A stretch of 64,000 bases of DNA, taken from Candidatus Dormiibacterota bacterium. Its GTDB lineage: Bacteria; Chloroflexota; Dormibacteria; Aeolococcales; Aeolococcaceae. Below are positions 1-64,000 of this stretch, piece after piece. The notes beneath the pieces were generated by a model. The model did not search any database and was not told the DNA's origin. It was given only the letters and a program-made list of their open reading frames with translations. The stretch is from the NCBI GenBank assembly GCA_963800175.1, contig CAWCZS010000002.1:960328-1024327 (forward strand), given 5' to 3'. The position numbers and the translations under genes are program-made. Every line of letters begins with the position of its first letter. The stretch's first letter is position 1.

Positions 1-1027
1 GCCGCGCTCGCCCAAAGTGATCACGGGGCTCGTGATCCTCGCGGTCTTCGCGGTGATCGCCATCATCGGCGCCTGGATCGCTCCGTACTCCCCGAATCTC
101 ACCAATGAGAGTTGGGTGCAGCACGTTCTCGTTGCCGGCACCGGTCCCGGGACGAACATCAAGGCCGACTACTACCCACTTCCGTTGGCGCCATCGAGCG
201 CGCACTGGCTCGGCACCACGATCTTTGCCCAGGACGTCTGGTCGCAACTGCTTGTCTCGACTCAGGCCACGGTTGCGGTCGGGCTGCTCGCGGCAGCGAT
301 CTCCACGGTGCTCTCGATCATCGTCGGAGTCACTGCGGGCTACCTCGGCGGCGGCGCCGACGAGGGGCTGTCGTTGCTCGGCAACGTCTTTCTCGCGATC
401 CCAGGGCTGCCGTTGCTGATCGTGCTCGCCGACTACGTGCCGGCCGCGGGCACGAGCATCTTCCTCGTCAGCCTGATCATCGCGATCACCGCATGGGCGT
501 ACAGCTCCCGGGTGCTGAGGGCGCAAACCCTCTCGTTGCGCAATCGGGACTTCGTTGAGGCAGCACGGGTTTCGGGAGAGGGGAGGATCCGCATCATCCT
601 CGTCGAGGTCCTGCCGAACCTCATTCCGATCGTGGCAGCGTCATTCCTTTTCACGACCCTGTACGCGATCGGCGCGTACGTCGCCATCTCCTTCCTCGGC
701 CTCGCCGGGTCACCGACGTCGTCACCACCAGGCCTCTGGAACTGGGGCTACATGCTGCGCGAAGTCTTCGCGAACGATGCGGTGCGCGGCGGCTGGTGGT
801 GGTGGTGGCTGCCGCCCGGCCTCTGTATCGCGCTGCTCGGCACAGGCCTGGCACTCCTCAACTTCGGCATCGACGAATTCATCAATCCCCGGCTCCGCGT
901 CGCCGGGTTGTCCCGCAAAGCCGCGCGCAAGCTGGGGATCAGCCGCCGGCCGAAGCTCGGGCTCACGCCCGTGGTGCGAAACCGCATCAAGGTCGACGTG
1001 GGCACGGCGGAACCGGGGACGCCATGA
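1..1027 (+). CDS. Oligopeptide/dipeptide ABC transporter permease (OppC/DppC family), 5'-partial at window edge
   Basis: ORF 17..1027 is open back to base 2. It has multi-TM hydrophobic N-terminal helices and a C-terminal LLPPGL...NxLGDxxR-type EAA-loop permease signature. Confidence 0.8.
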   Translation, partial: PRSPKVITGLVILAVFAVIAIIGAWIAPYSPNLTNESWVQHVLVAGTGPGTNIKADYYPLPLAPSSAHWLGTTIFAQDVWSQLLVSTQATVAVGLLAAAISTVLSIIVGVTAGYLGGGADEGLSLLGNVFLAIPGLPLLIVLADYVPAAGTSIFLVSLIIAITAWAYSSRVLRAQTLSLRNRDFVEAARVSGEGRIRIILVEVLPNLIPIVAASFLFTTLYAIGAYVAISFLGLAGSPTSSPPGLWNWGYMLREVFANDAVRGGWWWWWLPPGLCIALLGTGLALLNFGIDEFINPRLRVAGLSRKAARKLGISRRPKLGLTPVVRNRIKVDVGTAEPGTP

Positions 1028-2188
1028 CCCTCCAAGGGATGAGCGCCATGAACAGCTCCGCGAGCCCGGCCGTGTCTCCTTCCGCCGCGAGCCTGGATCC
1101 GGTGCTCGAGATCCGAGGCCTGTGCGTCGACTACGGCTTCGGCGACGACGCGGTGCATGCGGTTTCCGACTGCGACCTGACGCTTGGCCGCGGCCGCGTC
1201 CTCGGTCTGGCGGGGGAGAGCGGCAGCGGCAAGTCGACGCTTGCCATGGCCGCGATCCGTCTGCTCCGCTCGCCGGGTGTCATCACCGGCGGCGAGGTGC
1301 TTTTCCACTCCAAAGCCGAGTCCGGGACGCGAGCTCGCGCCGACTGTTGACCTACTGGTGGCAAACGAGGAGCAACTCCGAACCGTCCGTTGGTCCGAGA
1401 TCGCAATCGTCCTGCAGAGCGCGTTGAATGCGCTCAACCCGGTGAGCACCATCGGCGCGCAATTCGACGAGCTGCTGGCAACCCATCGTCACGGGATGAG
1501 CCGGGCCGACAGACGCGAACGCGCAGGCGACCTGCTCGAGCTGGTGGGCATGACGGCGGACCGGCTTCGCAGCTATCCACATGAGATGTCAGGTGGCATG
1601 CGCCAGCGGGCGATGATCGCGATGGCGCTCGCGCTGGATCCCCAGGTCATGATCCTCGACGAGCCCACGACGGCTCTTGACGTGGTGACCCAGCGCGAGA
1701 TCCTCGAGGAATTGATGGGACTGCGAGACCGGCTGGGTTTCGCGGCGCTTTTCATCACGCACGACCTCTCACTGCTGGTCGAGTTCGCCGACGACATCGC
1801 GGTGATGTATGCGGGCCGGCTCATGGAACGGGCGCCCGCGGCGTCGCTGTTTCGCGCGCCTCGTCTTCCGTATACGCACGGCCTGCTGCACTGCTTTCCG
1901 CCGATGCACGGCGATCGCTATCGGATGGAGGGGATTCCCGGCTCGCCCCCCGATCTGCGAGATCTTCCGCCGGGCTGCGCGTTTCATCCGCGATGCCAGT
2001 GGGCGATGCCGCAATGCGGTCAGGATGTGCCAAAACTCGAACCGCTGGCGGGGACGTCTCGCGAGGTTGCCTGCTGGCTGCATCGCGGTAACGCGACAGC
2101 TCCTCCCGAGTTGACGCTTCCGGATCCCGCGATGGGGCCTCCAGGTGTCGCACCGCCCATCGACACGAGCGCGGGGCGCGCTGTATGA
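1024..2188 (+). CDS. Opp/Dpp-family ABC ATP-binding protein (OppD-like), frameshift near 1320-1350
   Basis: ATG at 1024 overlaps the permease stop. Walker [10 protein letters not shown] is in ORF 796..1350. Signature [12 protein letters not shown], Walker [11 protein letters not shown] and the C-terminal oligopeptide-ABC tail are in ORF 1184..2188, in the +1 frame. Confidence 0.8.
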
Positions 2189-3237
2189 CCACGCTCGCCG
2201 TCGTTCCCGACGCCGGCCCCGAGGCGCCCGTGCTCGAAGGCCGAGGTTTGACGAAGTCGTTCTCGGTCAAGCGGGGTAGCGGACTGCTCGCGCGCCGCTC
2301 GCGGCTCCATGCGGTGGATGACGTTTCGCTGCAGCTGACGGCCGGAGCGGTCACCGCCGTCGTGGGCGAGAGCGGATCCGGCAAGACAACTGTTGCCCGA
2401 TTGCTCGCCAGGATCGTGAAACCCGATGCCGGCGATGTGCTCCTCGACGGAAAGCCCGTCGCCGCGACACGCTCCCGCGCGTTCGCGGCGCAGGTGCAGA
2501 TGGTGTTCCAGGACCCGTTTGCCTCACTCAATCCCGTGCACAGGATTCGCCATCACCTGGCGCGCCCCCTCCAGATCCACCACACCGCCGACGGTGACGT
2601 GGAACAGGCGGTGATGCAACTGCTGCACCGTGTTGCGCTCGATCCACCGGCGAAGTTCGCCGACAAGTTTCCCCACGAACTCTCAGGCGGCCAGCGACAG
2701 CGAGTCGCGATCGCCCGAGCCCTTGCGGTGCGTCCCCGGGTGCTGCTGGCCGATGAGCCGGTGTCGATGCTCGACGTTTCGATCCGCCTCGGCGTGCTCA
2801 ATCTGCTCGCCGATCTTCGCGACCGTGAGCAGCTCGCAATCCTTTACGTCACGCACGACATCGCGTCCGCGCGATATCTGGCCGACACCATCGTGGTCAT
2901 GTACGCCGGCCAGCTGGTCGAGGTGTCGCCGAGCGTCCGCCTCACCGACTCGCCGGCACATCCGTATACGCAACTCCTGCTATCCGCGGCGCCGGATCCG
3001 GAGCGGCTCGAGCGCCCGGTGCTCGCGGCCCGCGGAGCGCCACCGAGCCTGCTGGCGCCACCGCCCGGATGCCGTTTTCATCCGCGCTGCCCGCATGTGA
3101 TGGACATCTGCAAGCGCACGGCACCGCCCACGGTGACCGTTGCCCCGGTCACTCCGCAGCCTGCTGGTTGCACGTCGATAACGGTGAGCACCACGGCGAC
3201 GTGGCCATGGCGCCCGTGTCGCCGATTGTCGCGCTGA
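2185..3237 (+). CDS. Opp/Dpp-family ABC ATP-binding protein (OppF-like)
   Basis: Walker [10 protein letters not shown], signature [12 protein letters not shown], Walker [12 protein letters not shown] and a C-terminal CRFHPRCP motif. The start overlaps the upstream ATPase stop. Confidence 0.85.
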
Positions 3238-3359
3238 CGGGGGAGTCAGAAGTGCAACGCCCCCCGTAGTCGGCCGCATGCCACCCACCGAAGCAACGGG
3301 AAGTGCACTGCCCAACGCAGTGCGTCGGAGATCACGAATACGGTTAGAGGAGACACAAC

Positions 3360-5254: not shown

Positions 5255-7777
5255 ATGAACGCCACTGCCACCGATGAACGCGGTGACGAGTCCGACCTGC
5301 TGACGCGCCTCAGTCTCGAGGAGAAGGTTCACCTCCTGACCGGCGCCGACGCCTGGTCGCTCAACGCGATCGCGAGTGTCGGACTGCGCTCGATGGTTGT
5401 CTCCGACGGCCCATCCGGCGTGCGCGGACGCCGCTTCGATCCGGGTCATCTCTCCTCGTCGCTGCCGTGTCCTGTGGCCTTGAGTGCCACCTGGGACGAG
5501 GATCTCGTCACGGAGGTGACGCGTGCACTCGGGGTGGAGGCACGATCGCGAGGGGTCGATGTGTTGCTCGCGCCGACGGTGAACATCATCCGTACGCCGC
5601 TGAGTGGGCGAGGCTTCGAATGCTTCTCCGAGGACCCGTTTCTGACGTCGCGCATGGCGGTTGCATACGTGCGCGGTGTGCAGGACGCCGGCGTGGGGGC
5701 CTCCGTCAAGCATTACGTGGCCAACGATTCCGAGACCGATCGGCGAACCTACGACGCCGTCATCACCGAGCAGGTACTCCGGGAGCTGTATCTGCCGCCG
5801 TTTGAAGCGTGTGTTCTCGAGGCCGACGTGGCGATGGTGATGGCTGCGTACAACTCCGTCAACGGCGACACCATGACCGCCAATCGGCCGCTGCTTCGAG
5901 ATCTGCTCAAAGGCGAGTGGGGATTCCAGGGCGTCGTCGTTTCGGACTGGTCCGCGACGAGGACAACGGAGCCAACCGCCTTGGGGGGACTGGATCTCGC
6001 CATGCCGGGGCCCCGTGGACCATGGGGCGAGCAGTTGGTAGCAGCTGTGCGTGCCGGTGCCGTCCCCGAGGCCGACATCGATGACAAAGTGTTGCGGCTG
6101 CTGGGACTTGCTCGCAAGGTCGGCGCGCTCGACGGTGTCTCCGGCTCGTTGTCGAGTGACGGTGGAGCGAGTGGACACGATGCCGCAGACACTCCGTCCT
6201 CGTTGGTGGATCACGCACTGATGCGCGAGGTGACCTCGCGGTCGTTCGTGCTCCTCCGCAACGAGGATGGCCTGCTGCCACTGAAGAACACCGACGTGCG
6301 GCGCGTCGCGCTCATCGGACCAAATGTCGCGCATCCGCAGACACAGGGCGGCGGCAGTGTGCGTGTGCTGCCAGTCATCCGGCCCGGAGTTGTCGAGTCG
6401 CTGCGCACGCTGGGTGAGTTCGATGAGGTTGATGTGCAGGAAGGCTGCGCCACGTGGGCCACGATCCCACCGCCACCGAGTGGCAGTGTGCGTGATCCGG
6501 TAAGCGGCGACATCGGTGTGCGCGTTGAGGTTCGTGACGCTGCGGGCACACTGGTGTACGAGGCCACGCATCCGACCAGCGTGCTCACATGGTGGGACGG
6601 CCTGCCTGCGACGGTGCATCGCCCGGGATCGGAGTTGCTGATCCGCGCTCGTTATCGGGCCGCGAGTGGATGGCACACACGTGATCGGCGTCGCGGGCGT
6701 TGGACTGCTGAGCATCGCGGTCGACGGCTCCGAGCGTGCGGAGGCGACGACGCTGCCGCCGACCGAGGTGGTGGAAGCGTTCTCGCGTCCGCCCGAGCTC
6801 CGTGTGCCGATCGAGTTGCGCGCGCGGCGCCGACGTGGAAATACGGGCGGCATTCCGGCCGACGATTCGAGGACCGGAGGCGGGCTTTGTCACCATGCGG
6901 TTAGGCGTGACGCCGAAGGTCGATGAGGATCAATTGCTCGACGCCGCCGTTGCGGCTGCCGTCGCAGCCGATGTCGCTGTCGTTGTGGTCGGATCCGCGG
7001 AGGGGACCGAAAGCGAGGGCTACGACCGCGACACAATGTCGCTGCCGGGAAGACAGGACGAATTGGTGCGACGTGTTGCCGCCGCACAGCCAAAGACTGT
7101 CGTCGTTGTCAACTCGGGGATGCCCGTGCTGATGCCGTGGGTCGACGACGTCAAGGCCGTCATGCAGGTGTGGTTTCCGGGCCAGGCATTCGGGGAGGCG
7201 CTGACGGATTGCGTGCTCGGCGTCGCCGAGCCCGGTGGCCGGTTGCCGGTCTCGATCCCCCGCGAGGAGGCCGACTCTCCCGTGCTGCATGCGAAGCCAA
7301 AGGGAGGCACGCTCACTTACGCCGAGGGACTGCTCGTGGGGTATCGCGGCTACGACCGCGACGAGCGCGAGCCGCTGTTCTGTTTCGGCCATGGGCTCGG
7401 TTACACGGAGTGGAGCTACGAACTCGTTGTCCCTCGAGGGTGACGCGGTGCATGCGCACGAGGACCTCCCGGTCATCGTGACCCTGCGCAACACCGGACA
7501 CCGCCGTGGCCGCGAGGTGGTGCAGGTCTACCTGGAACCACACGATGACGAACCCGACCGTCCGCTGCGCACCCTGGCTGCCTTTGTCACGGTCGACGCC
7601 GAGGCCGGCGAGTCCGTCAGCGCGCGACTGGTGATTCCGTCCCGGGCATTTGCACGGTTCGATGCGGAGCTGCGCGACTGGACCTGGCGTCCGGGGACCT
7701 ACACCGTGCGAGCGGGCCGGTCGTCGCGAGATCTCAGGGTCAGCCAGCCGGTCCGCCTCGGCGTGCGTGTGATCTAA
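5255..7777 (+). CDS. Glycoside hydrolase family 3 beta-glucosidase (BglX-like) with C-terminal FnIII-like domain; at least 3 frameshifts (near 6655, 6830, 7440)
   Basis: N-terminal GH3 motifs (LSLEEKVHLLTG, GFxGVVVSDW, KHYVANDSE). The GH3 C-terminal domain (VVVVGSAEGTESEGYDRDTMSLPG...VVVVNSGMPVLMPW) is in ORF 6736..7443. The FnIII-like tail is in ORF 7235..7777. Together the segments tile one gene across four frames. Confidence 0.8.
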
Positions 7778-8380: not shown

Positions 8381-8461
8381 CGGTTCGGGCCTGGGCGCCC
8401 GAACATCCTCTGGCGTCGTCCGTAGAGTGGCCCTGCTACAGCTTCGTTACCGGCACGAACG

Positions 8462-10078
8462 GTGGGTTCGCCGGATCTCTGGCAAGCTCGACGCGGCGCG
8501 TTAGCCACTCACGGAGCTGGCCCACTCAAGTTGCGAAATACCAAGGACCGGGTTCGTCGCTCGGCACCGTTTGCCATCGCCGGCCTGGTCGCGCTCGGGA
8601 GCACGCTGCTTCCGCCAGGTCCCAGACATCCGCTCTGGCTGCTGCTTGCGATCGCGCTCGCCGTAGCGCTGGCGCTGGACGGCATTCTCGGGATGTCCAC
8701 GCGGGCACCGGCCTGGGTCCCGACGGTGCAGCTCCTGGCTACCGTGGCCGCTATCAGCGTCCTCGCGTATGCGGATGGCCCTTCATCGGGCCTCTCGGCG
8801 CTGCTGCTCCTCCCGGTGATCTTCTCGGCGCTCTACGGCAAGCTCCGCGAGGCCGCGTTCGTCATCCCCGCGATCGTCGTGGCGGACACCTTTATCTGGG
8901 CCCAGGGCACCTCCAATCCGGCCGCGCTGTTCCGGAGCCTTGTGGTCTACGCAGGGCATCGCACTGCTGGTCACCTTCGCGACGCACGGGCTGCGGCAGC
9001 GCTTGAGCACGGCAGTCGGCGCGGCCGATGAACGGGCTCGCCAGCTCGCCGTCATGGCGAACGCCGCGCAGGCGCTCAACAGCCTCGACCCGGATGAGGT
9101 GATGGCGATGGCGTCGCACCTGGCGGCGATCCTCGTCTCGCCCCACGGCGATGCTCCGCGCCGGGGCCAGTATTTCGTCCTCGACGGCGATGAGATGGTG
9201 GTTGCGGCAGACAGCGACGAGGTGGGGATCAGCCTGGCCGGAGAGCGCTGGCCGACCGCCGAGCATCCCGCGGCCGTCGAGGCGATTCGCACCGGTCGGG
9301 CAACGGCGGTCCGATCGACCTGGATGACTTCGGGCCGCATTGTCCGCACGCCTGATCCAGCTGAGCGGCATCACCCACTCCGCGTATGCGCTCGTGACGG
9401 TCGACGGGAAAGCCGTCGGGATTCTGTCGGCAGTCGAGCCGCGGACGTCCGATCGCCGATGACCTCGTGGAACGGCTTGGCTCGCTTGCGCATCTCACCG
9501 AGCTGGCGCTCGCAAACGCCATGACCCATCGTCGTTTTCAACGTCAGGCCACCGTCGACGCGCTCACCGATCTGGCCAACCGCCGCGGCTTCGACCTTGC
9601 GCTCCGACGAATTTCGGGGCGCACGCCGTTCGCGATTCTCGTCGTCGACGTCGATGGGCTCAAGGTCGTCAACGACCAGTGGGGACACGCGCAAGGCGAC
9701 CGGCTCATCGTCGAAGTCAGCGCCGCGCTTGCCGGTGTGATCCGCCGCGGGGACACACTCGCGCGAGTGGGTGGCGACGAATTCGCCGCTCTCGTGCTCG
9801 ATGCGTCGGACGAAGCGATCGCGCAACTCGAAACACGGATGCAGGCGGCGGTGGGTCGACTGCGACTGGAGTCCGGCATTCCCAGTATCAGCGTCGGCGC
9901 GGCGCTTGGGGCCAGGGATGAGGCGCCGCAGGACGTGTACGAGCGGGCCGACAGCGCCATGTACCGCGTCAAGCGCCGAAGGCACGCCGACCGCGCGGCT
10001 GTCAGCGATGCCGCGCTGACCGATGCCGCCCACTCCGCTCCGGCGAGAACCGGCGTGCTGGACCCACTCCATTCCTGA
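8462..10078 (+). CDS. Membrane sensor diguanylate cyclase (multi-TM N-terminus, GAF-like middle, GGDEF C-terminus); multiple frameshifts between about 8940 and 9470
   Basis: ORF 8462..9031 has 5-6 TM helices. ORF 8940..9524 continues with a GAF-like region. ORF 9467..10078 has GGDEF motifs (DALTDLANRRGF, RVGGDEFAAL). GAF fragments are visible in the third frame around 9360-9450. Confidence 0.7.
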
Positions 10079-10082
10079 GATG

Positions 10083-11290
10083 ACAGCAATCACGCTATCC
10101 ACCACCGACGGCAATGCCGAAATCGCAACCGAGAGCCGCTGGATCGGCGTCGGTACCTCAACAGCCGCGGAGTCGTATCAAGCCGGGCAGGGAGGCCGCA
10201 TCAACCGCGATCCGCGGCACCGACCCCCGGTTGCTGATCGTCTTCGCTTCTCCCGCGCAGGATCTCGCGGCGATGATCAAAGGCGTGCGCTCGGTTGCGC
10301 CTGCCGTACCGCTCATCGGCTGCACCACAGCGGGGGAGATCGCGACCGACGGGCCTGGCGACAACGGCGTCGTGGTGACCGCACTCGGTGGCAGCGGCTT
10401 CTCGGTCGCGACCCACGCGGCCCGAAACGCTTCGCGAGACCTGCGCGGTGCGGGCGCGGCCGCAGCCACCTGCGCGGAGCACGAGCGTGCCGGTGAACAC
10501 CAGGTCCTGCTCCTGCTGACTGACGGTCTCGCCGGCGATCAGCAGGAAGTCGTTCGAGGCGCATACAGCGTCGTGGGCGCATCCGTGCCGCTGGTCGGTG
10601 GCTGTGCCGGCGACGATCTCGCAATGCGCAAGACCTTCCAGTTCTTCGATGGCGAGGTCATCGAGGACTCGGTCGTCGCGGCCGCCATCACCTCGGATGC
10701 GCCGTTCGGCATCGGCGTCCAGCACGGGTGGACCAGGGTTGGTGCTCCGTTTCTCGTGACTGCCAGCAATGGGACTCGCGTGCTTGCGCTTGACGATCGG
10801 CCCGGCACTCGACGTCTATCTCGAGCGCCTCGACGCTCCCGCCGAAGCGCGCACCGATCCCGCGGCGTTCACACGATTTGCGCTGACGCATCCGTTCGGG
10901 TTGAATCGCCGCAGCGGCGAGGAAGTGCGCTTCATCGCCGAGGCGAACTTCGAAGACCGTTCCATCGTCTGCATCGCCGAGGTCCCGCAGGGCGGGCTTG
11001 CGTGGATCATGAAAGGCGACGCCGGGTCCGTCCTGGAGGCGACCACCGCGGCGTGCTCACAGGCAATCGATGGGCTTGTCGGGCGTCCACCACTCGGGTT
11101 TCTCGCTTTCGACTGCATCGCCCGGCGCGGGGTTCTCGGCAACGAGGGCATTCGCGAAGAGGTGAGTCAGATCAAGTCGTATGCGCAGGGCGCGCCGGTC
11201 GCCGGCTTCTACACATATGGGGAAATCGCTCGCACACACGGGGTCAGCGGATTCCACAACCAGACGTTGGTGGTGCTCGCCTTCGGCTGA
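10083..11290 (+). CDS. FIST-domain sensor protein (FIST_N + FIST_C); frameshifts near 10190 and 10780
   Basis: FIST_N-like LLIVFASPAQDLAAM...LIGCTTAGEI and FIST_C-like ...FLAFDCIARRGVLG...GFYTYGEI motifs. The N-terminus MTAITLSTTDG... lies in ORF 10023's frame. Confidence 0.7.
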
Positions 11291-11294
11291 TGGC

Positions 11295-13634
11295 ATGAAG
11301 AGCACCGATCGCGCTGCGGCTCCAGGCAACTGGTCGACTCAGCAACTGGCGGAATTCCTCGTCGCTGTGGCCGCAAGCACCGACGAGCGTTCGGCGCGCC
11401 TGTGCGCGATGCAGTGGGCATCCGAGGTGTTGGAGGCCGAGGTGGCGGCTGTCGTCACCGCTGACTCGGTCGTCGACATGATCGGGTTTCCTCGGGGCCA
11501 GGTTCCGGTTGCGGCATTGCTCGTCGCGGGCCGCCACTCGAACCACGAACTCCACGTTCCGCGAGTTGGAGCACTGCGCTCGGTCAGCGTTCCCATTGAA
11601 GAGATCGAGGGCCATCTCGTGGTCGGTCGCTCCGGCGACGAGCACTTTGCTGCCGATGAAGTCGGCCTGCTGCGCGCGATGGGGCGCAGTCTTTCGATGA
11701 CTCTTCGCGCGCTGCGCATGCTGGAGCAGGAGCGAGCGCTCCGCGCCGAGGTGGAGCTGCGCGCGCAGGAGAACCTGCGCCTGCTGCTCATGGTGCAGGA
11801 GCGTCAGACGGCCCTCGAACGGCTTTCCAAGATCCGCTTGTCCATCTCGCGTCGCGCGCCGCTGCCGGAGGTGCTCGACTCAGTTGTTGAAGGGGCTCGT
11901 GATCTGCTCGGCGACGAGGTCGTCGGACTCCGGCTCCTGGATGACGAGCACCCCGGGTTCGCGAATCTGGTCTCGTCGACCGGCGTTTCCCACGCGGTGC
12001 TCGCCACGACAAAACGGAGTTCGCTGTCGAACGGCGCCGGCGGACGCGCGATCGTCGAGGATCGCGTGATCATCCTGAACGACTATCAGAACGACTCTGG
12101 TGCGATGAACGAGTTCGTCGGCGATGAGTTGCAGAGTGCGATCGCCGCTCCGATCCACGAAAACGGTCGTGCGGTTGGCAGCATCACTGTGGCGACGCAC
12201 CGCCCAGGGCGTGAATACACCGACACCGACTGCGAGATGCTCGTGGCGCTCGCGGATCAGGCGAGCATCGCGCTCAACGACGCGAAAGCAGTCGACCAGA
12301 TGCGTCATCTCGCGTACCACGACGCGCTGACCGGTTTGCCGAATCGCCTGCTGTTCTTCGAGCACCTGGTTCGCGCGGTCGCCAACGCCAACCGAAGCGG
12401 GGCGAGCACTGCGGTGCTCTACCTTGACCTTGATCGTTTCAAGGTGGTCAACGACAGCCTGGGTCACAACGTGGGCGACCGCCTCCTCGAGGCAGTGGCC
12501 AAGCGCCTCCGCTCCGCACTGCGGACGGCGGACCTCGCCGCGCGTCTTGGTGGTGACGAGTTTGCCGTGCTGGCCGAGAACACGACTGCCGAAGGCGCGG
12601 TGATTCTTGCGGGGCGGATCTGCGATTCGCTCCGTGATCCCTTCGGCATCAGCGGGCATGAGCTGACCGTGACTGCGAGCGTCGGAGTCGTGGTCGATGC
12701 GGCCGGTCACACCGACGCCGACGCTCTCCTGCGCAACGCGGACCTCGCCATGTATCGGGCCAAGGTCGACGGGCGTGGCGGGCATGCGGTGTACGAACCG
12801 GACATGCACGCCGTTGCCTCGGATCGTGCTCATCTCGAGGGGAACCTGCGCCGTGCGGTGGCGCTTGATCAATTCGAGGTGCATTACCAACCGATCGTCT
12901 GGCTGGCGACCGGCAAGGTGCTCGGTGTGGAAGCGCTGGTGCGCTGGCGTCGCGATGACGGTGTGCTGGTTTCACCGGCCGAGTTCATCCCGGTTGCAGA
13001 GGAGATGGGGCTCATCGTCCCGATCGGACGCATGGTCATGGATACGTCGATGCGCCAGGTGCGCGAATGGCAGGACACGCAGCCCGAGGAATGGAGCCTG
13101 AATCTCAGCATCAACCTCTCGGCGCGACAGCTCTATGAACCCGACATCGTGCGCGAAGTGGTTGATGCGCTGACCAGCACGGGTTTCGATCCGACGCACC
13201 TGACGTTGGAAATCACCGAGACCGCGTTGATGCACGACACTTCGACGGTGAGTGCGCGGCTGGACGAGCTTCGCGCTGTCGGTGCGCGCATCGCACTCGA
13301 CGATTTCGGCACCGGATATTCGTCGTTGAGCTACCTGCGCAACTTTCCAATCGACGTCCTCAAAGTGGACAAGTCATTTATCGACGACATAGCGTCGGGA
13401 TCGGACCGTGCGAATCTCGCCCGCGGGATCATCGAGCTCGGAAGGACCATGCAGCTCGACATCGTCGCCGAGGGAATCGAGGATCCACTGCAGGTCGTCG
13501 AGTTGTTGCGTCTGCAGTGCAGCATGGGTCAGGGCTTTCATTTCTCCCGGCCGCTTCCGCCCGCGGAGCTCAGCAAATACCTCCTCGCGCAGCACGGGGT
13601 TCCGGCGGTCAAACCGTCGATCGTCGCGGTCTAG
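11295..13634 (+). CDS. GAF-GAF-GGDEF-EAL c-di-GMP signalling protein
   Basis: ATG at 11295 lies 5 bp after the FIST stop. GGDEF motifs LTGLPNR and GGDEFAVL. EAL motifs EALVRW, DDFGTGYSSL and QGFHFSRPLP. Single clean 780-aa ORF. Confidence 0.85.
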   Translation: MKSTDRAAAPGNWSTQQLAEFLVAVAASTDERSARLCAMQWASEVLEAEVAAVVTADSVVDMIGFPRGQVPVAALLVAGRHSNHELHVPRVGALRSVSVPIEEIEGHLVVGRSGDEHFAADEVGLLRAMGRSLSMTLRALRMLEQERALRAEVELRAQENLRLLLMVQERQTALERLSKIRLSISRRAPLPEVLDSVVEGARDLLGDEVVGLRLLDDEHPGFANLVSSTGVSHAVLATTKRSSLSNGAGGRAIVEDRVIILNDYQNDSGAMNEFVGDELQSAIAAPIHENGRAVGSITVATHRPGREYTDTDCEMLVALADQASIALNDAKAVDQMRHLAYHDALTGLPNRLLFFEHLVRAVANANRSGASTAVLYLDLDRFKVVNDSLGHNVGDRLLEAVAKRLRSALRTADLAARLGGDEFAVLAENTTAEGAVILAGRICDSLRDPFGISGHELTVTASVGVVVDAAGHTDADALLRNADLAMYRAKVDGRGGHAVYEPDMHAVASDRAHLEGNLRRAVALDQFEVHYQPIVWLATGKVLGVEALVRWRRDDGVLVSPAEFIPVAEEMGLIVPIGRMVMDTSMRQVREWQDTQPEEWSLNLSINLSARQLYEPDIVREVVDALTSTGFDPTHLTLEITETALMHDTSTVSARLDELRAVGARIALDDFGTGYSSLSYLRNFPIDVLKVDKSFIDDIASGSDRANLARGIIELGRTMQLDIVAEGIEDPLQVVELLRLQCSMGQGFHFSRPLPPAELSKYLLAQHGVPAVKPSIVAV

Positions 13635-13754
13635 CCTCCTGCGCCTGCGCGAAGCGGGACGTGTAACCCCGGCTGGTATCCCTCCCAGGTCCGCGCCCAG
13701 AGGAGCGGGGGATGAGACGCCGCGTCGCGGCAACGCCGATCGGAGGAAGTACGC

Positions 13755-14468: not shown

Positions 14469-14488
14469 GTGCTGTAATTCGACACCAG

Positions 14489-49210: not shown

Positions 49211-49212
49211 CC

Positions 49213-50442: not shown

Positions 50443-50489
50443 GCTCGAGACCGTCCCCGAAGTTGCCGACCCGGTACTCTAGGGGGGAT

Positions 50490-50715
50490 ATGGCACACGT
50501 TCGTCTCGCCAACGGCGGCGACCTCTCCGTGAAGCTCACCGTCGAGGAGATCACCGCCAAGCTCAACGCGTCCGGCGGGGGCTCGGGATTTGTCGAGCTT
50601 CCCGGGCGAGGACGGTCCCTTCCTTGTTCGCCCCGAGGCCGTCATCGCGGTCATCGCCGATCAGCGGCGCGGTGCTGCTGGGTTCCGGGTGGCGCAGGGA
50701 GCCGAGGCCAGCTGA
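50490..50715 (+). CDS. DUF3107-like small protein; frameshift near 50610
   Basis: MAHVRLANGGDLSVKLTVEEITAKLNASG...GFVELPGEDGPFLVRPEAVIAVI matches the DUF3107 pattern once one frame switch is allowed. Confidence 0.45.
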
Positions 50716-50774
50716 TCGGCGTGTCCACGCCGCAGCATCCGGCGCAGCCGGCGTTGACGCTCGTGCCGAGGGCG

Positions 50775-51683: not shown

Positions 51684-52133
51684 ATCTGCGCTTCGCGACG
51701 ATCGCACCCGCAGCCGAACGTCGCATTCGCGATCTCGCTGCGGCCGCGTATCCGCACGAGGGATGCGGCGTGCTGCTCGGGCGCAGGGATGGGACGCGGA
51801 TGGTCATCGTCGACGTGACGTCTGCTCGCAACATGTGGACGGAGCGTGCGGCCGATCGCTACGACCTCGATCCGGTCGATTTCATGAAGGCGGATCGCGA
51901 CGGTCGATCGCGCGGACTCGACATCGCCGGGCATCTGGCACAGCCATCCCGACCACCCGGCGCAGCCGTCGAAATTCGACACCGACCACGCGTGGGTCGA
52001 TTACGTCTACGTCATCTGTCGCACGACCACCGCGGGCGCCGAGGACATGAACGCGTTTGCGCTCGAAGCTGAAGGGGCCCCGTTCGGACCGGTCTCGATG
52101 GACATCTCGCCCGTCCCCGGCGTGGGGAAGTGA
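51680..52133 (+). CDS. MPN/JAMM-family metalloprotease (Mec-like); frameshift near 51930
   Basis: HEGCGVLLG (E and the JAMM N-terminus). HSHPDHPAQPSKFD is recovered in the adjacent frame. The GTG start overlaps the cysM stop. Confidence 0.7.
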
Positions 52134-53539
52134 GCCCGGCCGGCGCCACTCGCCGGCGCCGCCACGAGGAGGGAGAGCCGATTGCTCCCGCAGTCGGAGT
52201 GGTCGCAATTGTCGGTCGTCCGAACGTCGGAAAATCGACGCTGTTCAACCGGCTGACGGGAACGCGGCGCGCGATCGTCGACGCCTTTGCCGGACTGACT
52301 CGCGACCGCCTGTACGGCGTGGTGGAGTGGGGCGGAAAACGCTTCACGATCGTTGACACTGCCGGCCTCGACGTGCCGTTGCCGAAGAATGCCGCACCGG
52401 ATATCGCTGCGCTGACGCGTGCAACTCGTGAGCAGGCGCAGATGGCGATCACCGAGGCAGATGTCTGCTGCTTCATGGTCGATGTGCGTGACGGTGTCAC
52501 CGCGCTCGACGAGGAAATCGCCCAGGCGCTCCGCCGCGGAGGAAGGCCGGTCATCCTCGTCGGCAACAAGGCCGACAGTCAGGTCGACAGCTATCGCGCC
52601 GATGAGCTGTACCGCCTTGGCCTCGGCGAGCCGCTGCTCATCTCGGCGTTGCAGGGCACCGACACCGGTGATCTGCTCGACCGTTTCGTCGCGGATCTTC
52701 CCGAGAACGGATCGGCCGGAACCGAGCCATCGGTGGGCGAGGTGAGTGTCGCAATCATCGGCCGCCCGAACACCGGCAAATCCTCACTGCTCAACGGCCT
52801 TGTCGGCTCGGAGCGAGCGCTGGTTTCGCCGGTCGCGGGAACCACGCGCGACGTTGTCGACACCGTGGTGTCACTCGACGGAAGGCAGATCCGGCTTGTG
52901 GACACGGCGGGCATTCGCCGCCGCGGCATCGTCACCGAGAACGTTGAGCGCTACAGCCTGTTGCGATCGTTGCGCGCATTGCAACGCAGCGACGTCGGAC
53001 TGCTCGTCATCGATGCGTCCGAGGGAGCGAGCGCGCAGGACCGGCACATCGCCGGCTACGCAGTCGAAGCCGGCGCCGGACTTGTTGTTGCGGCAAACAA
53101 GTGGGATCTCGTGCGCCATGAGGATCGTGTTGACGCGGCCTATCTCGAGAAGCTCAAGGAGTCGTTCTCGTTTGTCCCGGGCGTTCCCGTGCTGACGTTA
53201 TCGGCGACGGAGCATCGCAACCTGAAACGTGTGATGCCCGCAGTGCTTGCCGTAGCCGACGCGCGCGCCATTCACATCCCCACGCCGGCACTCAACAATC
53301 TGATTCGCAACGCACTCGACGAGCATCCGCCGCGCACCCACAAAGGGAAGCGACTCAAGATCCTGTATGCGACGCAGGCGCGAAGCCCAGTCCCGACAAT
53401 CGTGCTCTTCGTGAACGATCCCGAACTGATGCACTTCGCTTACCAGCGCTATCTCGAGAACCGTATTCGAGCAGTCTTCGGGTTCGCGGGCGTGCGACTG
53501 CGGATCGTGACCCGTCACCGCGACGAGAGCGACGACTGA
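52130..53539 (+). CDS. der: Ribosome-associated GTPase Der (EngA), two G domains + KH-like domain
   Basis: Two P-loops (GRPNVGKST and GRPNTGKSS), DTAG and NKxD motifs. Confidence 0.9.
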   Translation: MSPAGATRRRRHEEGEPIAPAVGVVAIVGRPNVGKSTLFNRLTGTRRAIVDAFAGLTRDRLYGVVEWGGKRFTIVDTAGLDVPLPKNAAPDIAALTRATREQAQMAITEADVCCFMVDVRDGVTALDEEIAQALRRGGRPVILVGNKADSQVDSYRADELYRLGLGEPLLISALQGTDTGDLLDRFVADLPENGSAGTEPSVGEVSVAIIGRPNTGKSSLLNGLVGSERALVSPVAGTTRDVVDTVVSLDGRQIRLVDTAGIRRRGIVTENVERYSLLRSLRALQRSDVGLLVIDASEGASAQDRHIAGYAVEAGAGLVVAANKWDLVRHEDRVDAAYLEKLKESFSFVPGVPVLTLSATEHRNLKRVMPAVLAVADARAIHIPTPALNNLIRNALDEHPPRTHKGKRLKILYATQARSPVPTIVLFVNDPELMHFAYQRYLENRIRAVFGFAGVRLRIVTRHRDESDD

Positions 53540-53590
53540 ACTCCCAGTCGGCCTCGGTGGCCCGGCGCGTTAGAGTCGCTAGGCGCGCCT

Positions 53591-53664
53591 CGGGGAGTAG
53601 CTCAGATGGTTAGAGTACTGGTCTGGGGGACCAGGGGTCGCAGGTTCGAGTCCTGTCTCCCCGA
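53591..53664 (+). tRNA. tRNA-Pro (anticodon GGG)
   Basis: Manual fold. Acceptor stem CGGGGAG/CTCCCCG, D-arm GCTC-AGATGGTTA-GAGT, anticodon stem CTGGT/ACCAG with loop CTGGGGG, T-arm GCAGG-TTCGAGT-CCTGT, discriminator A. Confidence 0.8.
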
Positions 53665-53797
53665 TTCGCAGCCCATTGCACTGCAGTGCAGCCGTTTCCA
53701 CTCGGATTGCAGTGGATTCCAACTTGTGGGGATCAGTCATTTTGCAGGGACTAGAACTCATTCCCTGATTGATGTTCTTTCCTGCAAAACCACTCTA
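53622..53797 (+). repeat. Direct repeat copy 1 (tRNA-Pro 3' half + ~135 bp downstream); candidate attL
   Basis: About 90% identical to 62713..62888 by eye. Contains the palindrome GCACTGCAGTGC and a CAGGGA(n11)TCCCTG hairpin. Confidence 0.7.
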
Positions 53798-55945: not shown

Positions 55946-56616
55946 CATCGGACGTCTCGAACCTGAGCGCTGGTGGCAGCGCTGTGCGTGGGTGCGTTCC
56001 GCCACGCTGCACCGTCCCACCACTGATCATGCGTTGCATCGCGCGTTGCCCCAGCTGGGATCTCGCGAGCAGCGTCGTGCCACGCCGACCCGTCCCACCA
56101 AGCGTCGCGCTCTGGGGACATCACAAATCCATGCAGTCGCAGCATCGCCGGGACTCGCCGTCCATGTGGTGCAAATGCAGCGACCATGAGCAGGCCGGAG
56201 ATTGCCACCTCGATCGCGATGAAGATGAGGGCATGCGCAGGCGGCGTGGCAACGCCGAGATCCGGCGCGCCAAGTTGTTGACCCCCGCCGACGTACCAGC
56301 TGACCCACACCGCTTCGCCGACGAAGTAGCCTGACATGCAGAGGAGGAGGATCGCGATGCGAGCCTGGCGCGCGAGTGCAACCGACGTCATTCCCAGCAG
56401 GTAGAGCGCCGAGATCCACCCAGAGGTCACGACCAAGGTGATCGTCCCGTCGTAGTCGCCTTCCTCCGCGTTCCACGCGAAACAACCGAAGAGGAAGAAG
56501 GCGCCGAGCATGGCAAGCATCATCACGACGACGATCTCTGAAGCAGGGGTCCGATCTGGCGCGGGTGCCCCTCGCATCTCCAGGTTCAGTGCCGGCGTTC
56601 CTTCGATCTGATCCAT
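55945..56616 (-). CDS. Hypothetical membrane protein with WWDG(S/A)AW C-terminal repeats
   Basis: 4 TM helices. C-terminal WWDGSAWHDA and WWDGAAWRNA repeats. Confidence 0.45.
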   Translation of the reverse strand: MDQIEGTPALNLEMRGAPAPDRTPASEIVVVMMLAMLGAFFLFGCFAWNAEEGDYDGTITLVVTSGWISALYLLGMTSVALARQARIAILLLCMSGYFVGEAVWVSWYVGGGQQLGAPDLGVATPPAHALIFIAIEVAISGLLMVAAFAPHGRRVPAMLRLHGFVMSPERDAWWDGSAWHDAAREIPAGATRDATHDQWWDGAAWRNAPTHSAATSAQVRDVR

Positions 56617-56723
56617 GACGCTACTCCCTATTCCGAGGACAATCGCATGGTGCTGTTGTCCTTGGCACCTCGATCCTCGCTCCGCCCGGGCGCCGCCGCA
56701 TCGGTGTCATCCCGCTTCCGTCG

Positions 56724-57410
56724 TTAGGGCTTTCCCTCATCCCCGTTGCCTGCGATGTTCCGCCCCCCGCTGCGAAGCCAGCTGAGCACGGAGAGCACGC
56801 GGCGATTGTCGTCACCGGTCGATTCGATGTCGAGTTTCGAGAAGATGGCGCTCACATGTGCCTCCACGGTCTTGGGGCTGAGGAAGAGACGCTCGCCGAT
56901 AGCGCGATTCGACCGGCCCTCGGCCATGAGGGCGAGGACTTCCTGCTCGCGCGGGGTGAGCGTGTCGAGCGGGTCGACCTCGCGTCGCCGCTGCACGAGG
57001 CGGGACACGATGGCGGCGTCGATCACTGATCGGCCGGCCGCCACCGTGCGCACGGCCGCGACCAGCTCCGCGACGTCGCCGACGCGATCCTTGAGCAGAT
57101 AGCCGACGCCGTCCGCACCGCGTGCGAGCAGCTGCATCGCGTAGTGGGTCTCGACATACTGCGAAAGGAGCAGCACGCCGACCGCGGGATGGCGCTCGCG
57201 CAGCACGAGCGCTGCCTCGAGCCCCTCGGTGCTGTGGGTCGGTGGCATCCGAATATCGACGATGCACGCATCGGGGGGGTCGGCATCGACCGCAGCGAGC
57301 AGCGCGGCTCCGTCGCCAACCTGCGCGATGACCTCGAAACCGGCGTCGACGAGGATGCGGCTCAAACCCTCGCTGAGCAGAACGGAGTTGTCCGCGATGA
57401 TCACGCGCAT
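56724..57410 (-). CDS. Two-component response regulator, NarL/LuxR family
   Basis: REC domain (acid pocket DNSV, phospho-acceptor D in CIVDIRMPP) plus a LuxR HTH (LTPREQEVLALMAEGRSNRAIGERLFLSPKTVEAHVSAIFSKL). Confidence 0.9.
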   Translation of the reverse strand: MRVIIADNSVLLSEGLSRILVDAGFEVIAQVGDGAALLAAVDADPPDACIVDIRMPPTHSTEGLEAALVLRERHPAVGVLLLSQYVETHYAMQLLARGADGVGYLLKDRVGDVAELVAAVRTVAAGRSVIDAAIVSRLVQRRREVDPLDTLTPREQEVLALMAEGRSNRAIGERLFLSPKTVEAHVSAIFSKLDIESTGDDNRRVLSVLSWLRSGGRNIAGNGDEGKP

Positions 57411-59167
57411 GGCAAGTCCATCCGTATCCGGGTGCCTCCACCGAGCGGGCTGTCGACGTCGATCGTGCCATCGAGTGCTCCGACTTGATCGACGAGGCCG
57501 CGCAGCCCGCTGCCCCGATCCGGTTTTGCTCCGCCGACGCCGTCATCCTCGATGACCACGGTGAGATGTCCCGCCGTGGTGCTCGCCGTCACGACGACAG
57601 CGGTAGCGGCTCCGTGTTTGGCGACATTTGTCAGCGCCTCGCAGACCGCGAAATATGCGGCGGCCTCAACTGCGTCGGGGAGACGGCCGGCGATGTCGGT
57701 GTGCACGGTCACGGGCAGCGGCGCCTGCTCCGCGAGCGACTCCAGAGCGGGCGCGAGCCCGGCGTCGGTGAGGATCGCGGGGCGGATGCCCGCAGCCAGC
57801 GCACGCAACTCCGCGAGCGCCGTGCGGAGCTGCTCCTCCGCAACACGGATCACGTCGCGGGCCTTCTCCGTCTGGCCCGTTTCGAGCCGGGCGCTGATCT
57901 GCCCGAGGCTCATCGAGAGAGCGATGAGTCGTTGCTGAGCGCCGTCGTGCAGATCGCGCTCGAGACGCCGGCGCTCCTCGTCGGCAACCTTCACCAGCCG
58001 CGCACGCGATTCCCGCACCTGCGCGAGGCGAGCACGAAGGGCGGCCTGGAGGCGCTCGTTCTCGATGGCGAGCGAGGCGGCGGCGGCGACGCCCGCAACC
58101 AGTGCCGGGTCGTGCTCGAGCGAGTGATCGTGGACGAGCGCGGCCACCTCCTGCCCATGCCGCTCGAGCAGCGTGGCCGTGCGTGAAGACGAGGCATCAG
58201 GGAGTTTGGTGGGACGACCGTCGCTGTCGACCCACCCCTGACGACGGGGCACCCTGTATGCAATCGTCACGGAGGGATCTCGGAGCGCGCGGGCAAGCGC
58301 GTCGCGCAGTTCGCCCGACGGCGGCGAGGCGCCCAGTTCAACGACGAGGTGGCCGATCGCCGCGACGGCAAGGCGGCTGCGCACCAGCCCGACGACGAAC
58401 GTGATCGGCAGGCTCGCGAGCGCGATGGGCGTTGCGATGGGCAGCACGTTCTGCAACCAGGGCGCTGACGTGGTCAGCGCGGGGGTACTGAGGACGATGA
58501 CCGCAAGGAGCATCGGCCCGCTCGCCCAGAACGCCGGCGCGAGCGCACGCCGCGCAGGCAGCGTCCCGCGCCGGTAGTGGAGCCCGATCACCGCAACGAC
58601 ACCTATCGAGACCGCGACGTTGATGGACTCCTGTACGGCTTCAGCGACGTCGTGCTGCACTGCGTCGTGGTGCAAGGCGAAGACGTCGATGCTCGACGGC
58701 GTGGCGAAAAGGATTTCGGGAAATACGTTCCCGCACAGTGCGACGGCATACGCCAGCCCCACGATTGCTCTGTCGAGCCGCGTCTCAAGGCGCCCCGAGG
58801 GAAACGCGACCACGAGGTGGCCGAGTAGGCCGAACCAGGCGATGTTGAGGAGCAGGCCGACGGCGTCAAGTTGCGGGGAGGGCGTGTAGACCAGGTCGCC
58901 AACGCACCATCCAATCCCAGCGGCCGTCATGAGCATGCCGGTTCGGTTTGCTGGGCGACGCAGCCAAGCGATGCCGCCGACGATCACGTAGGTGAGGGCT
59001 CCAAGCGCGTGCAGCAGCGTCGCCGCCGCTGACGGATGATCCCTTCCGACGATTCCGCCGATCAGCGCCAAAACGACAACAGCGACCCCGGCCGTCATTG
59101 CCGCGAACGGACGCGCCGCGCTGCGATTGACGCGGCTGCTCAAACCGACGGCGACGGCCGTACTCAC
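57401..59167 (-). CDS. Sensor histidine kinase (HisKA_3 + HATPase_c) with ~340-aa polytopic N-terminal membrane domain
   Basis: H-box ERRRLERDLHDGAQQRL, HATPase motifs (EALTNVAKHG, DDGVGG, GSGLRGL). About 9 TM helices precede the kinase core. Overlaps the response regulator gene by 10 bp. Confidence 0.85.
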   Translation of the reverse strand: MSTAVAVGLSSRVNRSAARPFAAMTAGVAVVVLALIGGIVGRDHPSAAATLLHALGALTYVIVGGIAWLRRPANRTGMLMTAAGIGWCVGDLVYTPSPQLDAVGLLLNIAWFGLLGHLVVAFPSGRLETRLDRAIVGLAYAVALCGNVFPEILFATPSSIDVFALHHDAVQHDVAEAVQESINVAVSIGVVAVIGLHYRRGTLPARRALAPAFWASGPMLLAVIVLSTPALTTSAPWLQNVLPIATPIALASLPITFVVGLVRSRLAVAAIGHLVVELGASPPSGELRDALARALRDPSVTIAYRVPRRQGWVDSDGRPTKLPDASSSRTATLLERHGQEVAALVHDHSLEHDPALVAGVAAAASLAIENERLQAALRARLAQVRESRARLVKVADEERRRLERDLHDGAQQRLIALSMSLGQISARLETGQTEKARDVIRVAEEQLRTALAELRALAAGIRPAILTDAGLAPALESLAEQAPLPVTVHTDIAGRLPDAVEAAAYFAVCEALTNVAKHGAATAVVVTASTTAGHLTVVIEDDGVGGAKPDRGSGLRGLVDQVGALDGTIDVDSPLGGGTRIRMDLPCA

Positions 59168-62423: not shown

Positions 62424-62712
62424 CTTGGAGGCCAGCGTACATCTTGCTCGGTGGCCGCGTGACGACACATTCCAGCGGTACCGACAAGGTAGGCCTGTAG
62501 GCGTTTGATGGGCATGAAGTTGAAGTCTCGAGCGCCGTCTCCCTGAGAGCGTTGGCGAGGCCCGACGTGGTGGTCCGCCCGCGCGCCGCTACCCGCATCA
62601 GTTCCACGCGATTCGAACGGAATCCAAGACGCGCGCTCTAGTCGTGTTTCCAACCATTTTCCGACGAAACCACTCTAAATCGAACTCAGCACTCGTCGGG
62701 AAATGAGGACTA

Positions 62713-62888
62713 ATCTGGGGGACCAGGGGTCGCAGGTTCGAAGTCCTGTCTCCCCGATTCGCAGCCCATTTCACTGCAGTGAAGCCATTTCCACTCAGTA
62801 GCAGCCGATTCCAACTCCTGGGGATCAGTCACTTTGCAGGGACTAGTACTCATTCCCTGATTGATGTTCTTTCCTGCAAAACCACTCT
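62713..62888 (+). repeat. Direct repeat copy 2 (3' half of tRNA-Pro + ~135 bp); candidate attR / pseudo-tRNA remnant
   Basis: Matches 53622..53797 with one extra A in the T-loop and scattered substitutions. The upstream sequence gtcgggaaatgagg resembles a degraded tRNA 5' half. Confidence 0.7.
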
Positions 62889-63028
62889 ATGAAGCGCCAC
62901 GAGAATCCTGGAGACGATGGCGAGGCCAATGCCCGACGATGAGCGGCAGCGCGAAGGCCTGATGAAGCAGGACACTTGGGCGGCGGTCAGGCAGAGGACT
63001 CAACTCAACGACAGAGGGTTTCCCAAGA

Positions 63029-63712
63029 ATGGCGTCGCACCCGGTCCTCAACTTCAGCACCACCGACTTCCTGGAGGGTATGCCGCGCGCGAGTTGTGAG
63101 CAGATTCTTGTGAACAGCACAAAGATCAGGTATGCCGCCGGGACGATCGCGTTTCAGCCTGGGGATCCCGACCGAGCGGACATCCTTGAAACCGGCTTCG
63201 CCCGCATCTACCTGTCCTCGTCTGAGGGGAGGCAGGCCACCATCAGGTACGTACACGCGGGAGAGTTGATGGGCGGGCTGCTCGTCATGGGCGCCACCTT
63301 CGACGGCTCCGTACAAATCGTGGTGAACTCGACGGTGATCCACCTGGACCTTCTCGCCGTGCGTCGACGAGTTGTCGCGGATCCGGCGCTGGGAAAGGCC
63401 GTCGCAGCGGATCTCGCCATGCGGTATTCCCATGCCGTCCGTACGATCGGCCTTCACGCCTTCGGATCCGTCATGCAGCGCGTCGCGTTCGATCTCTTAG
63501 AGCGGGCCAGCCGGAGCCAATTGTCCACCGGCCTGCTCGAGGCGGAGGTGTCCCAACAAGAGATCGCCGAAGGGATCGGATCGGCCCGCCAGGTCGTCAC
63601 TCGGGGCTTGGCTGAATTGCGGTCGCGAAGTCTGGTCGCGACAACCCATCGCCGCGTCAGGATTCTCGATCCGGTGCGTCTGGAGGCGCTGGCCCTGTCG
63701 AATCTCGTCTGA
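63029..63712 (+). CDS. Crp/Fnr-family transcriptional regulator
   Basis: cNMP-binding-like beta-roll N-terminus and a C-terminal HTH (QQEIAEGIGSARQVVTRGLAELRSRSLV). Confidence 0.8.
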   Translation: MASHPVLNFSTTDFLEGMPRASCEQILVNSTKIRYAAGTIAFQPGDPDRADILETGFARIYLSSSEGRQATIRYVHAGELMGGLLVMGATFDGSVQIVVNSTVIHLDLLAVRRRVVADPALGKAVAADLAMRYSHAVRTIGLHAFGSVMQRVAFDLLERASRSQLSTGLLEAEVSQQEIAEGIGSARQVVTRGLAELRSRSLVATTHRRVRILDPVRLEALALSNLV

Positions 63713-63850
63713 GGACCCAGCCCGTGGACCTGTCACCCAGGTGACATCAATTGCGCCGCGGTGCGCCCATCGTGGCGATGTGCGTGGTCATGGCACGCGC
63801 GAGCCCGACACTGATTCGACCACGGCTACGACGTGGTCAAGGAGGAACGA

Positions 63851-64000
63851 TGCCCGTCTCCCACGCAACTGACCTCGCCGACCAGGTCGAGCGCGCCAAC
63901 ACGAGCGGCCTGACTCCGGTGGTATTCATCCACGGCCTCTGGCTGCTGCCGCACAGCTGGGACCGCTGGGCCACGGTGTTCGCGCAGGCGGGGTACGCGC
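63851..64000 (+). CDS. Alpha/beta hydrolase, 5' fragment at window edge
   Basis: VVFIHGLWLLPHSWDRW is typical of the N-terminal region of alpha/beta-fold hydrolases. The ORF runs off the window. Confidence 0.5.

Follow-up and report, generated by a model that had tools for sequence, protein, structure and literature searches.

Interrupted genes in the window

The DNA studied here is a stretch of 64,000 nucleotides (nt) of contig CAWCZS010000002.1 (hereafter, the window), in which many conserved genes, from oligopeptide transport ATPases to enolase and cytochrome c oxidase subunit I, are broken into overlapping open reading frames (ORFs) that lie in different frames. The G+C content of the window is 65%. 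Its intact Der GTPase (52130-53536) was 94% identical to a protein from a Candidatus Dormibacteria metagenome-assembled genome (MAG), and the next 100 Der matches were Dormibacteria/Dormibacteraeota proteins from soil and peat metagenomes. Judged from these matches, the window comes from an uncultured member of Candidatus Dormibacterota and is thus a piece of a metagenome-assembled contig. By using proteins of relatives together with nucleotide alignment to contigs of the same species, 36 frame-shifting indels of 1 nt were identified in 22 of the ~55 window genes (Table 1), that is, 0.56 events per kb overall. When intergenic DNA was also counted, the indel rate against the same-species references was ~1 per kb. 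Extra bases far outnumbered missing bases (32 versus 4; binomial p = 2e-6).

The interruption of conserved genes, which had been noticed in the first-pass annotation, was confirmed. The coding frame steps inside genes, as seen both in the GC content by codon position and in a six-frame Viterbi path based on codon usage, and nearly every junction goes from frame n to n+1, that is, the window carries one extra base. In Pfam searches, consecutive parts of single domains were found in different frames for oppD, the GH3 gene, FIST, ctaD, the MFS transporter, the M20 peptidase, enolase and the Cys/Met enzyme, and N-terminally truncated matches lacking a start codon were found for ctaB, the short-chain dehydrogenase, the JAB protein and the solute-binding protein. 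The frameshifted genes are encoded in one piece at the syntenic loci of two relatives (L001 and L002). Junctions were located by tblastn of relatives' ORFs and by frameshift-aware protein-to-DNA alignment, a check that the first-pass annotation had recommended. For base-level placement we relied on the contigs of 98-99% identity instead of the relatives of 80-90% identity, against which protein-level or nucleotide-parsimony placement gave ambiguous and in part incorrect results (for example, the inserted base in the M20 peptidase and enolase genes is G or C, not A). Four of the events in the membrane GGDEF gene were seen only after same-species alignment, which also first revealed both events in the cupredoxin-like gene, the event close to the 3' terminus of the gene for the 773-aa (amino acid) protein, and several indels in intergenic DNA.

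All genes that had been named as struck were indeed affected, including ctaG, but our count was 22 rather than the 'at least 25' proposed. Seven affected genes had been missing from that list: oppF, the MalK-like ATPase gene, the cupredoxin-like gene and the genes for the 198-, 350-, 773- and 74-aa proteins. The genes considered clean (qor, the permease gene at 41385-42419, der, the histidine kinase and response regulator genes and the LplT-like/PlsC pair) were all clean. As had also been stated, essential genes were not spared: enolase, ctaD and ctaB each carry single-base events and were struck like any other gene, the events being indifferent to gene function. Event counts in 8-kb bins fitted a Poisson distribution (chi2 p = 0.075, or 0.25 with the cluster at 9.3-9.4 kb counted once), and only the segment at 9306-9434 clearly deviated from an even error rate. 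In the Viterbi path, PlsC and three small ORFs between 54.7 and 56.7 kb also resembled frameshift tiles; this was rejected, and they were read as separate complete genes.

Table 1. Window-specific indels in genes and intergenic DNA, with the evidence for each. L-numbers denote comparison loci or contigs (L163-L176, same species; lower numbers, more distant relatives). Intact lengths are those in same-species contigs.
Feature	Position	Strand	Indels in the window	Evidence
oppD (oligopeptide ABC ATPase)	1024-2188	+	one extra base near 1328	ABC_tran profile 2-46 and 59-137 in different frames; against L005, 4 residues spanned by 13 nt (1318-1330); relatives of only ~79% nt identity
oppF	2185-3269	+	one missing base near 3149; last ~39 codons out of frame	single-base deletion at 3149 against L005 and L025 proteins; ORF tail nonsense; distant relatives only
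GH3 beta-glucosidase-like gene	5255-7777	+	extra bases 6665, 6825, 7421	GH3_C 2-42 and 46-200 in two frames, Fn3-like domain in the third; L168 and L169 lack all three bases; intact, 839 aa
Membrane GGDEF gene	8531-10078	+	extra bases 8957, 9338, 9348, 9408, 9434; missing bases 9306, 9416	intact in L168 and L169, 519 aa; indels from nucleotide alignment
FIST gene	10080-11290	+	extra bases 10183, 10804	FIST and FIST_C domains in different frames; intact in L168, 402 aa; frameshift-aware alignment against L004/L031 concordant
198-aa membrane protein gene	15932-16529	+	extra base 16104, with adjoining C-to-A change	base missing from L167 and L168; frameshift-aware alignment against L003 concordant
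Cupredoxin-like gene	16526-17289	-	extra bases 16767, 16839	L163/L167 lack both bases and encode an intact Copper-bind protein, 253 aa
350-aa OFeT_1-like membrane protein gene	17588-18641	+	extra base 18065, with adjoining C-to-T change	base not in L163, L164, L166 and L167; insertion placed there by 8 relatives
ctaD (cytochrome c oxidase subunit I)	20547-22440	+	extra base 21135	COX1 profile 2-84 and 76-434 in two frames; base not in L163-L167; intact, 630 aa
ctaG (caa3 assembly factor)	23049-23889	+	extra base 23109; N-terminal 22 codons affected	insertion placed at 23109 by 11 relatives; base not in L163, L164, L166 and L167; intact, 279 aa; appears intact by Pfam coverage, N-terminal shift visible only with homologues
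ctaB (heme O synthase, UbiA family)	24419-25373	+	extra base at 24622-24628 (~24625), locally divergent stretch	UbiA match begins at profile position 15, no in-frame start codon; insertion backed by 14 relatives; intact in L166, 317 aa
MalK-like sugar ABC ATPase gene	32339-33488	+	extra base 33469, five codons ahead of the true stop	homologous C-terminus RITTG and stop in the next frame; L174 and L175 lack the base; intact, 382 aa
MFS transporter gene	35124-36790	+	extra bases 35852, 36456	MFS_1 3-247 and 194-345 in different frames; L174 lacks both bases; intact, 554 aa
773-aa membrane/beta-propeller-like protein gene	36801-38946	-	extra base near 36843; true stop lost	L174 protein ends in ELLTPVSSEPSSGAQP and stop, matching window peptide in another frame; frameshift-aware alignment places insertion at 36843
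Polar amino-acid ABC ATPase gene	40608-41386	-	one missing base ~40680 (gene-strand GGG read as GG)	C-terminal peptide in neighbouring frame; single-base deletion against L043 and L055; relatives of only ~80% nt identity
SBP_bac_3 solute-binding protein gene	42420-43447	-	extra bases 42656, 43009	one frame holds only profile positions 1-70; L170 lacks both bases
Short-chain dehydrogenase gene	45087-45945	+	extra C 45252	base not in L170, L171 and L173 (99.6% identical), nor in L001/L002
M20 peptidase gene	46524-47917	+	extra bases 46629, 47152-47155 (listed as 47152)	Pfam domain split 1-102 and 112-204; L170, L171 and L172 lack both bases; intact, 463 aa
Enolase gene	47914-49210	+	extra G 48579; compensated +1/-1 pairs 48222/48225, 48426/48428	Enolase_C 2-86 and 86-291 in two frames; intact in L170, 431 aa
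Cys/Met-metabolism PLP enzyme gene	49213-50441	+	extra bases 49488, 49999	Pfam profile 92-241 and 242-380 in different frames; L170 lacks both bases; intact, 408 aa
74-aa hypothetical gene	50491-50716	+	extra base 50598	base not in L170, nor in L001
mec-like JAB-domain gene	51680-52133	+	extra base 51927	downstream frame holds only Prok-JAB positions 62-110; base not in L170 and L001/L002; intact, 150 aa
Intergenic insertions	8414-28287	.	+1 at 8414, 14514, 25418, 28284, 28287	nucleotide alignment to L166, L167 and L168
Intergenic deletions			-1 at 18677 (G6 read as G5); -2 at 14627	nucleotide alignment to L166, L167 and L168

Comparison with contigs of the same species

Same-species contigs with 98-99.9% nt identity to the window, drawn from six or more independent samples, cover 45.5 kb of it (3727-30483, 32266-38074, 42546-53653 and 56153-57962). 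They were retrieved through five small intact window proteins whose identical sequences occur on other contigs (ctaC, an isochorismatase, a 155-aa protein, an MGS-like protein and the response regulator). Each of the five look-ups that succeeded also listed a single contig longer than 1 Mb with the identical protein; this is probably the contig from which the window derives, and its length would fit a long-read assembly. The sources were JGI data sets 3300079399, 3300079084, 3300074299, 3300062626 and 3300085322, NCBI assembly GCA_052915905.1, ENA ERZ27256628 and Logan ERR10755938. Exact-protein look-ups with Der, OppA, PALP and qor found no match, and a metagenome scan with the histidine kinase yielded only relatives of at most 44% identity, with no usable synteny.

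Within the covered spans, each predicted frameshift appeared as a window-specific gap of 1 nt in the nucleotide alignment. All 33 covered frame-shifting indels were missing from the same-species contigs, which are concordant at these sites, differ there from the window and carry the genes intact; this is the outcome of the comparison with an independent assembly that had been suggested earlier. Since the slips do not occur in other assemblies of this species, the frameshifts are almost certainly consensus errors of the source assembly, and would be neither the result of gene decay nor any other feature of the organism's DNA. Under such an error process, consensus calling would insert one spurious base every 1-2 kb or so and lose bases far more rarely, and the errors would fall at error-prone k-mers regardless of gene boundaries or function. 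Each event would then shift the reading frame, so that ORF finders obtain two to four overlapping pieces per gene.

Several smaller irregularities were observed in the same alignments. Some events have an adjoining substitution or form compensated +1/-1 pairs. In the enolase gene such pairs are 2-3 nt apart, alter one or two codons and keep the frame, which suggests that the consensus also holds local scrambles invisible to ORF analysis. The segment at 9306-9434 contains six indels within 130 nt as well as dense mismatches to two same-species contigs, and may be either a place where the consensus is very poor or a segment that varies between strains. At 10015, close to the 3' end of the membrane GGDEF gene, the window is short of one 15-nt tandem unit, CCCTGACCGATGCCG, relative to L168 and L169; this copy difference is in frame and probably represents natural variation. 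Some of the intergenic indels may also be natural intergenic polymorphism.

Sequence context of the errors

The inserted bases (A 6, C 11, G 10 and T 2) matched the base composition (chi2 p = 0.47), and they could be found between two unlike bases, as in CTGCT[G]CATGG, GCGCG[T]ACTG and AGGG[C]GAGG (inserted base in brackets). Their contexts were clearly recurrent. Among the insertion sites of the window, 14 pairs shared a 7-mer (3.8 +/- 2.1 expected), a number reached in none of 500 random draws. Examples of recurring contexts are CGAACTCG, GCGCTTG and CCGACGCA. It should be noted that different true sequences were converted into the same product: GCGCTTG was produced from GCCTTG (49488 and 49999) and from GCGTTG (21135), and CGAACTCG from CGACTCG in the window and from CAACTCG in L004/L041. 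Such recurring wrong k-mers point to the behaviour of a signal-to-sequence or neural consensus caller rather than to mutation.

Several of the related loci carry names of the form MFDxxxxx.bin.* and Flye-style contig names, and belong to the Microflora Danica catalogue. The long-read MAGs of this catalogue are Nanopore-only and were assembled with Flye and one Medaka round, with no short-read polishing; Nanopore errors were inspected by its authors through coding density only (PMC12313526). We aligned proteins of short-read MAGs to eight Nanopore-only loci of the same phylum. These loci (L041, L004, L025, L043, L017, L022, L012 and L031; 134 kb) have frameshifts of their own, mostly extra bases (40 extra and 9 missing), and five short-read MAG loci showed essentially nothing beyond gene-boundary artefacts. 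The highest density was observed in L041 (CAWFRX010000022.1), with 18 extra bases and 1 missing base in 18.7 kb (~1 per kb). Extra-base sites of the window and of the Nanopore-only MAGs shared a 7-mer in 31 cases (11.5 +/- 3.6 expected; none of 500 draws reached it). In addition, the same spurious base occurred at an orthologous site in two MAGs (L004 20732 and L041 20869). Genes were also found split in short-read MAGs, namely qor in L055 (8748-9691; palsa_871) and the MalK-like gene in L005 (18101-19275; palsa_857); thus, occasional apparent frameshifts exist in short-read references too.

The 8:1 insertion bias of the window and its error contexts fall within the signature of Nanopore-only MAGs. 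Because of this match, we consider it probable that the source is a long-read assembly, most likely a Nanopore-only assembly of the Flye/Medaka type from a population of modest coverage. R10.4-type data resolve homopolymers to ~10 nt, and bins below ~40x coverage still need polishing (PMC9262707); such resolution fits the lack of homopolymer errors in the window, and a chemistry of this type that still makes context-specific errors would fit its signature.

Part of the recurring contexts might reflect DNA base modification mis-called by the nanopore base-caller, and if so, the error map would be an indirect read-out of the Dormibacterota methylome. We regard this as doubtful. On the one hand, 4 of the 36 events (7421, 36456, 16767 and 16839) lie in or beside GA(C/G)TC of the corrected sequence, with ~0.3 such coincidences expected (a post-hoc estimate from 88 sites), and a GAACTC product was present at 8 of the 40 extra bases in the other Nanopore MAGs of the phylum. 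The corrected sequence has to be used for this purpose, because the insertion destroys the motif and adjacency is uninformative on the uncorrected one. On the other hand, the majority of the 88 GA(C/G)TC sites carry no event, and CAACTCG is converted into the identical wrong k-mer although it is not a GANTC site. A methylation-motif explanation with full penetrance was rejected, as 88 GA(C/G)TC sites remain unaffected.

Alternative explanations

Several points weigh against attributing the frameshifts to consensus error. The contigs used for comparison belong to other strains (divergence 0.1-2%), and any single indel may therefore be strain-specific; their sequencing technology is not stated. 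The events at 1328, 3149 and 40680 rest solely on relatives of ~80% nt identity. No same-species reference was available for 1-3.7, 30.5-32.3, 38.1-42.5 and 58-64 kb (~18 kb), and thus further events may have been missed there. Finally, the platform is itself deduced from the error signature; the verdict of an artefact does not depend on it.

Among the alternatives, the one that survives best is that co-occurring haplotypes were collapsed in the consensus, so that strain mixing rather than base-calling or polishing produced the indels. Soil populations are rich in strains, the dense segment at 9306-9434 is what such a collapse might leave behind, and substitutions adjoin the insertions at 16104, 18065, 24625, 35852 and 50598. 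However, a mixture of strains leaves three observations unexplained: insertions exceed deletions 8:1, different true sequences converge on the same wrong k-mers, and these k-mers are common to independent MAGs of other species. We therefore consider this explanation unlikely.

Classical homopolymer-length errors, of the kind known from Nanopore R9, 454 or Ion Torrent data, are a still poorer candidate. The first-pass annotation had proposed checking whether the indels sit in homopolymer runs, and in general they do not: none of the 61 runs of at least 5 nt coincided with a frame-shifting event, the nearest distance being at least 16 nt. Only 9 of the 29 inserted bases had an identical neighbour, which is about the level of random insertion, and the remaining 20 had none, many of them lying between unlike bases. 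Short runs were altered at 40680 (GGG to GG), 18677 (G6 to G5), 9408, 14514 and 16767, but most events were non-homopolymer insertions in recurring k-mers, and it is very unlikely that run-length errors account for them.

Real, massive and very recent pseudogenisation, as in a reductive genome like that of Mycobacterium leprae, would also interrupt many conserved genes, and the comparison contigs, at 98-99.9% identity, are not the identical strain. The fate of the interrupted genes could be followed by deleting the extra bases and restoring the missing ones. The 17 genes repaired in this way contained no internal stops and could be aligned over their full length with relatives (78-97% aa identity). 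The pooled ratio of nonsynonymous to synonymous substitution rates (dN/dS) was 0.090 upstream of the first shift, 0.094 downstream of it and 0.086 in ten uninterrupted genes, and thus nothing indicates relaxed selection in the interrupted genes. In bacteria, naturally decaying genes tend to lose bases rather than gain them and show a mixture of stop codons and larger deletions, whereas the window has 32 insertions against 4 deletions, neither in-frame stops nor larger deletions, and enolase, ctaD and ctaB among the genes struck. Moreover, every testable event was missing from every same-species contig, and the contexts recur in unrelated Nanopore MAGs and not in short-read MAGs. The unchanged dN/dS, the insertion bias and the lack of the events elsewhere in the species make real pseudogenisation highly improbable, in agreement with the earlier preference for sequencing or assembly error over a genome full of pseudogenes.

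Equally improbable is an artificial alteration of the window by random simulated insertions. The inserted bases do follow composition and their positions are roughly Poisson, but the contexts recur far above chance and match real Nanopore MAG errors, and simulated insertions would not account for the adjoining substitutions and compensated +1/-1 pairs seen at some events. Programmed recoding, in which +1 sites would be decoded by ribosomal frameshifting or transcriptional slippage, shares with the data little more than the +1 direction of almost all events and has a negligible chance of being correct, given that the sites are not conserved (the orthologues in L001-L006, L023, L024 and L163-L176 are single-frame), that no common slippery motif was found among them, that up to seven events occur in one gene and that intergenic DNA is affected as well.

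Other features of the locus

A tRNA-Pro(GGG) gene is located at 53590-53665. Its 3' part and ~130 nt downstream (53613-53797) are repeated with 92-95% identity at 62705-62889, 9.09 kb away. Between the repeats are three small membrane or lipoprotein genes, the genes for a LuxR-type response regulator and a histidine kinase, and the LplT-like/PlsC pair. From its arrangement, this segment resembles an island that entered at the tRNA; no integrase was recognised in it. Another difference in gene content was observed at 13660-15640, where a cupredoxin/TIG gene and a DUF2252 gene are present in the window and in the same-species contigs L167 and L168, and not at this position in the relatives of 87-92% identity (L003 and L004), in which the GGDEF-EAL gene is directly followed by the 198-aa protein gene. 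The difference is an insertion or deletion at the species level.

Implications and comparison with known systems

Biologically, the frameshifts have no consequence, as the genes are intact in the organism. For users of the sequence the situation is different: without frameshift correction, annotation, completeness, pseudogene counts and metabolic reconstruction would be wrong for ~40% of the contig's genes. Errors of this kind are also present in several publicly available MAGs of the phylum that are based on Nanopore data alone, and the collection from which these loci come holds one genome per GTDB species. Since the errors are insertion-biased and fall outside homopolymers, quality checks that focus on homopolymers would miss them.

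Three known systems can be compared with the window. It resembles programmed +1 frameshifting of the prfB type in that one base is extra with respect to the reading frame, and differs in the lack of conservation and of a common motif, in the many sites per gene and in the sites outside genes. With reductive genomes of the Mycobacterium leprae type it shares a large proportion of interrupted conserved genes; in contrast to them, it has no stops, larger deletions or relaxed selection, its lesions are insertion-biased, affect essential genes and are not found elsewhere in the same species. The closest likeness is to consensus errors in Nanopore-only assemblies. Frameshifts of this origin are a known problem in long-read genomes and MAGs and are the target of IDEEL tests, proovframe and Kastor (PMC9262707; bioRxiv 10.1101/2021.08.23.457338; PMC12007338). 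As in such assemblies, single-base indels split conserved genes across frames whatever the function of the gene, and they are missing from accurate assemblies. Whereas the literature emphasises homopolymer indels, the errors of the window involve no run of 5 nt or more, and consist of insertions and deletions at 8:1, with an inserted base mostly unlike its neighbours and placed in recurring GC-rich k-mers. This insertion-biased, non-homopolymer and k-mer-specific signature is the only departure from textbook long-read errors.

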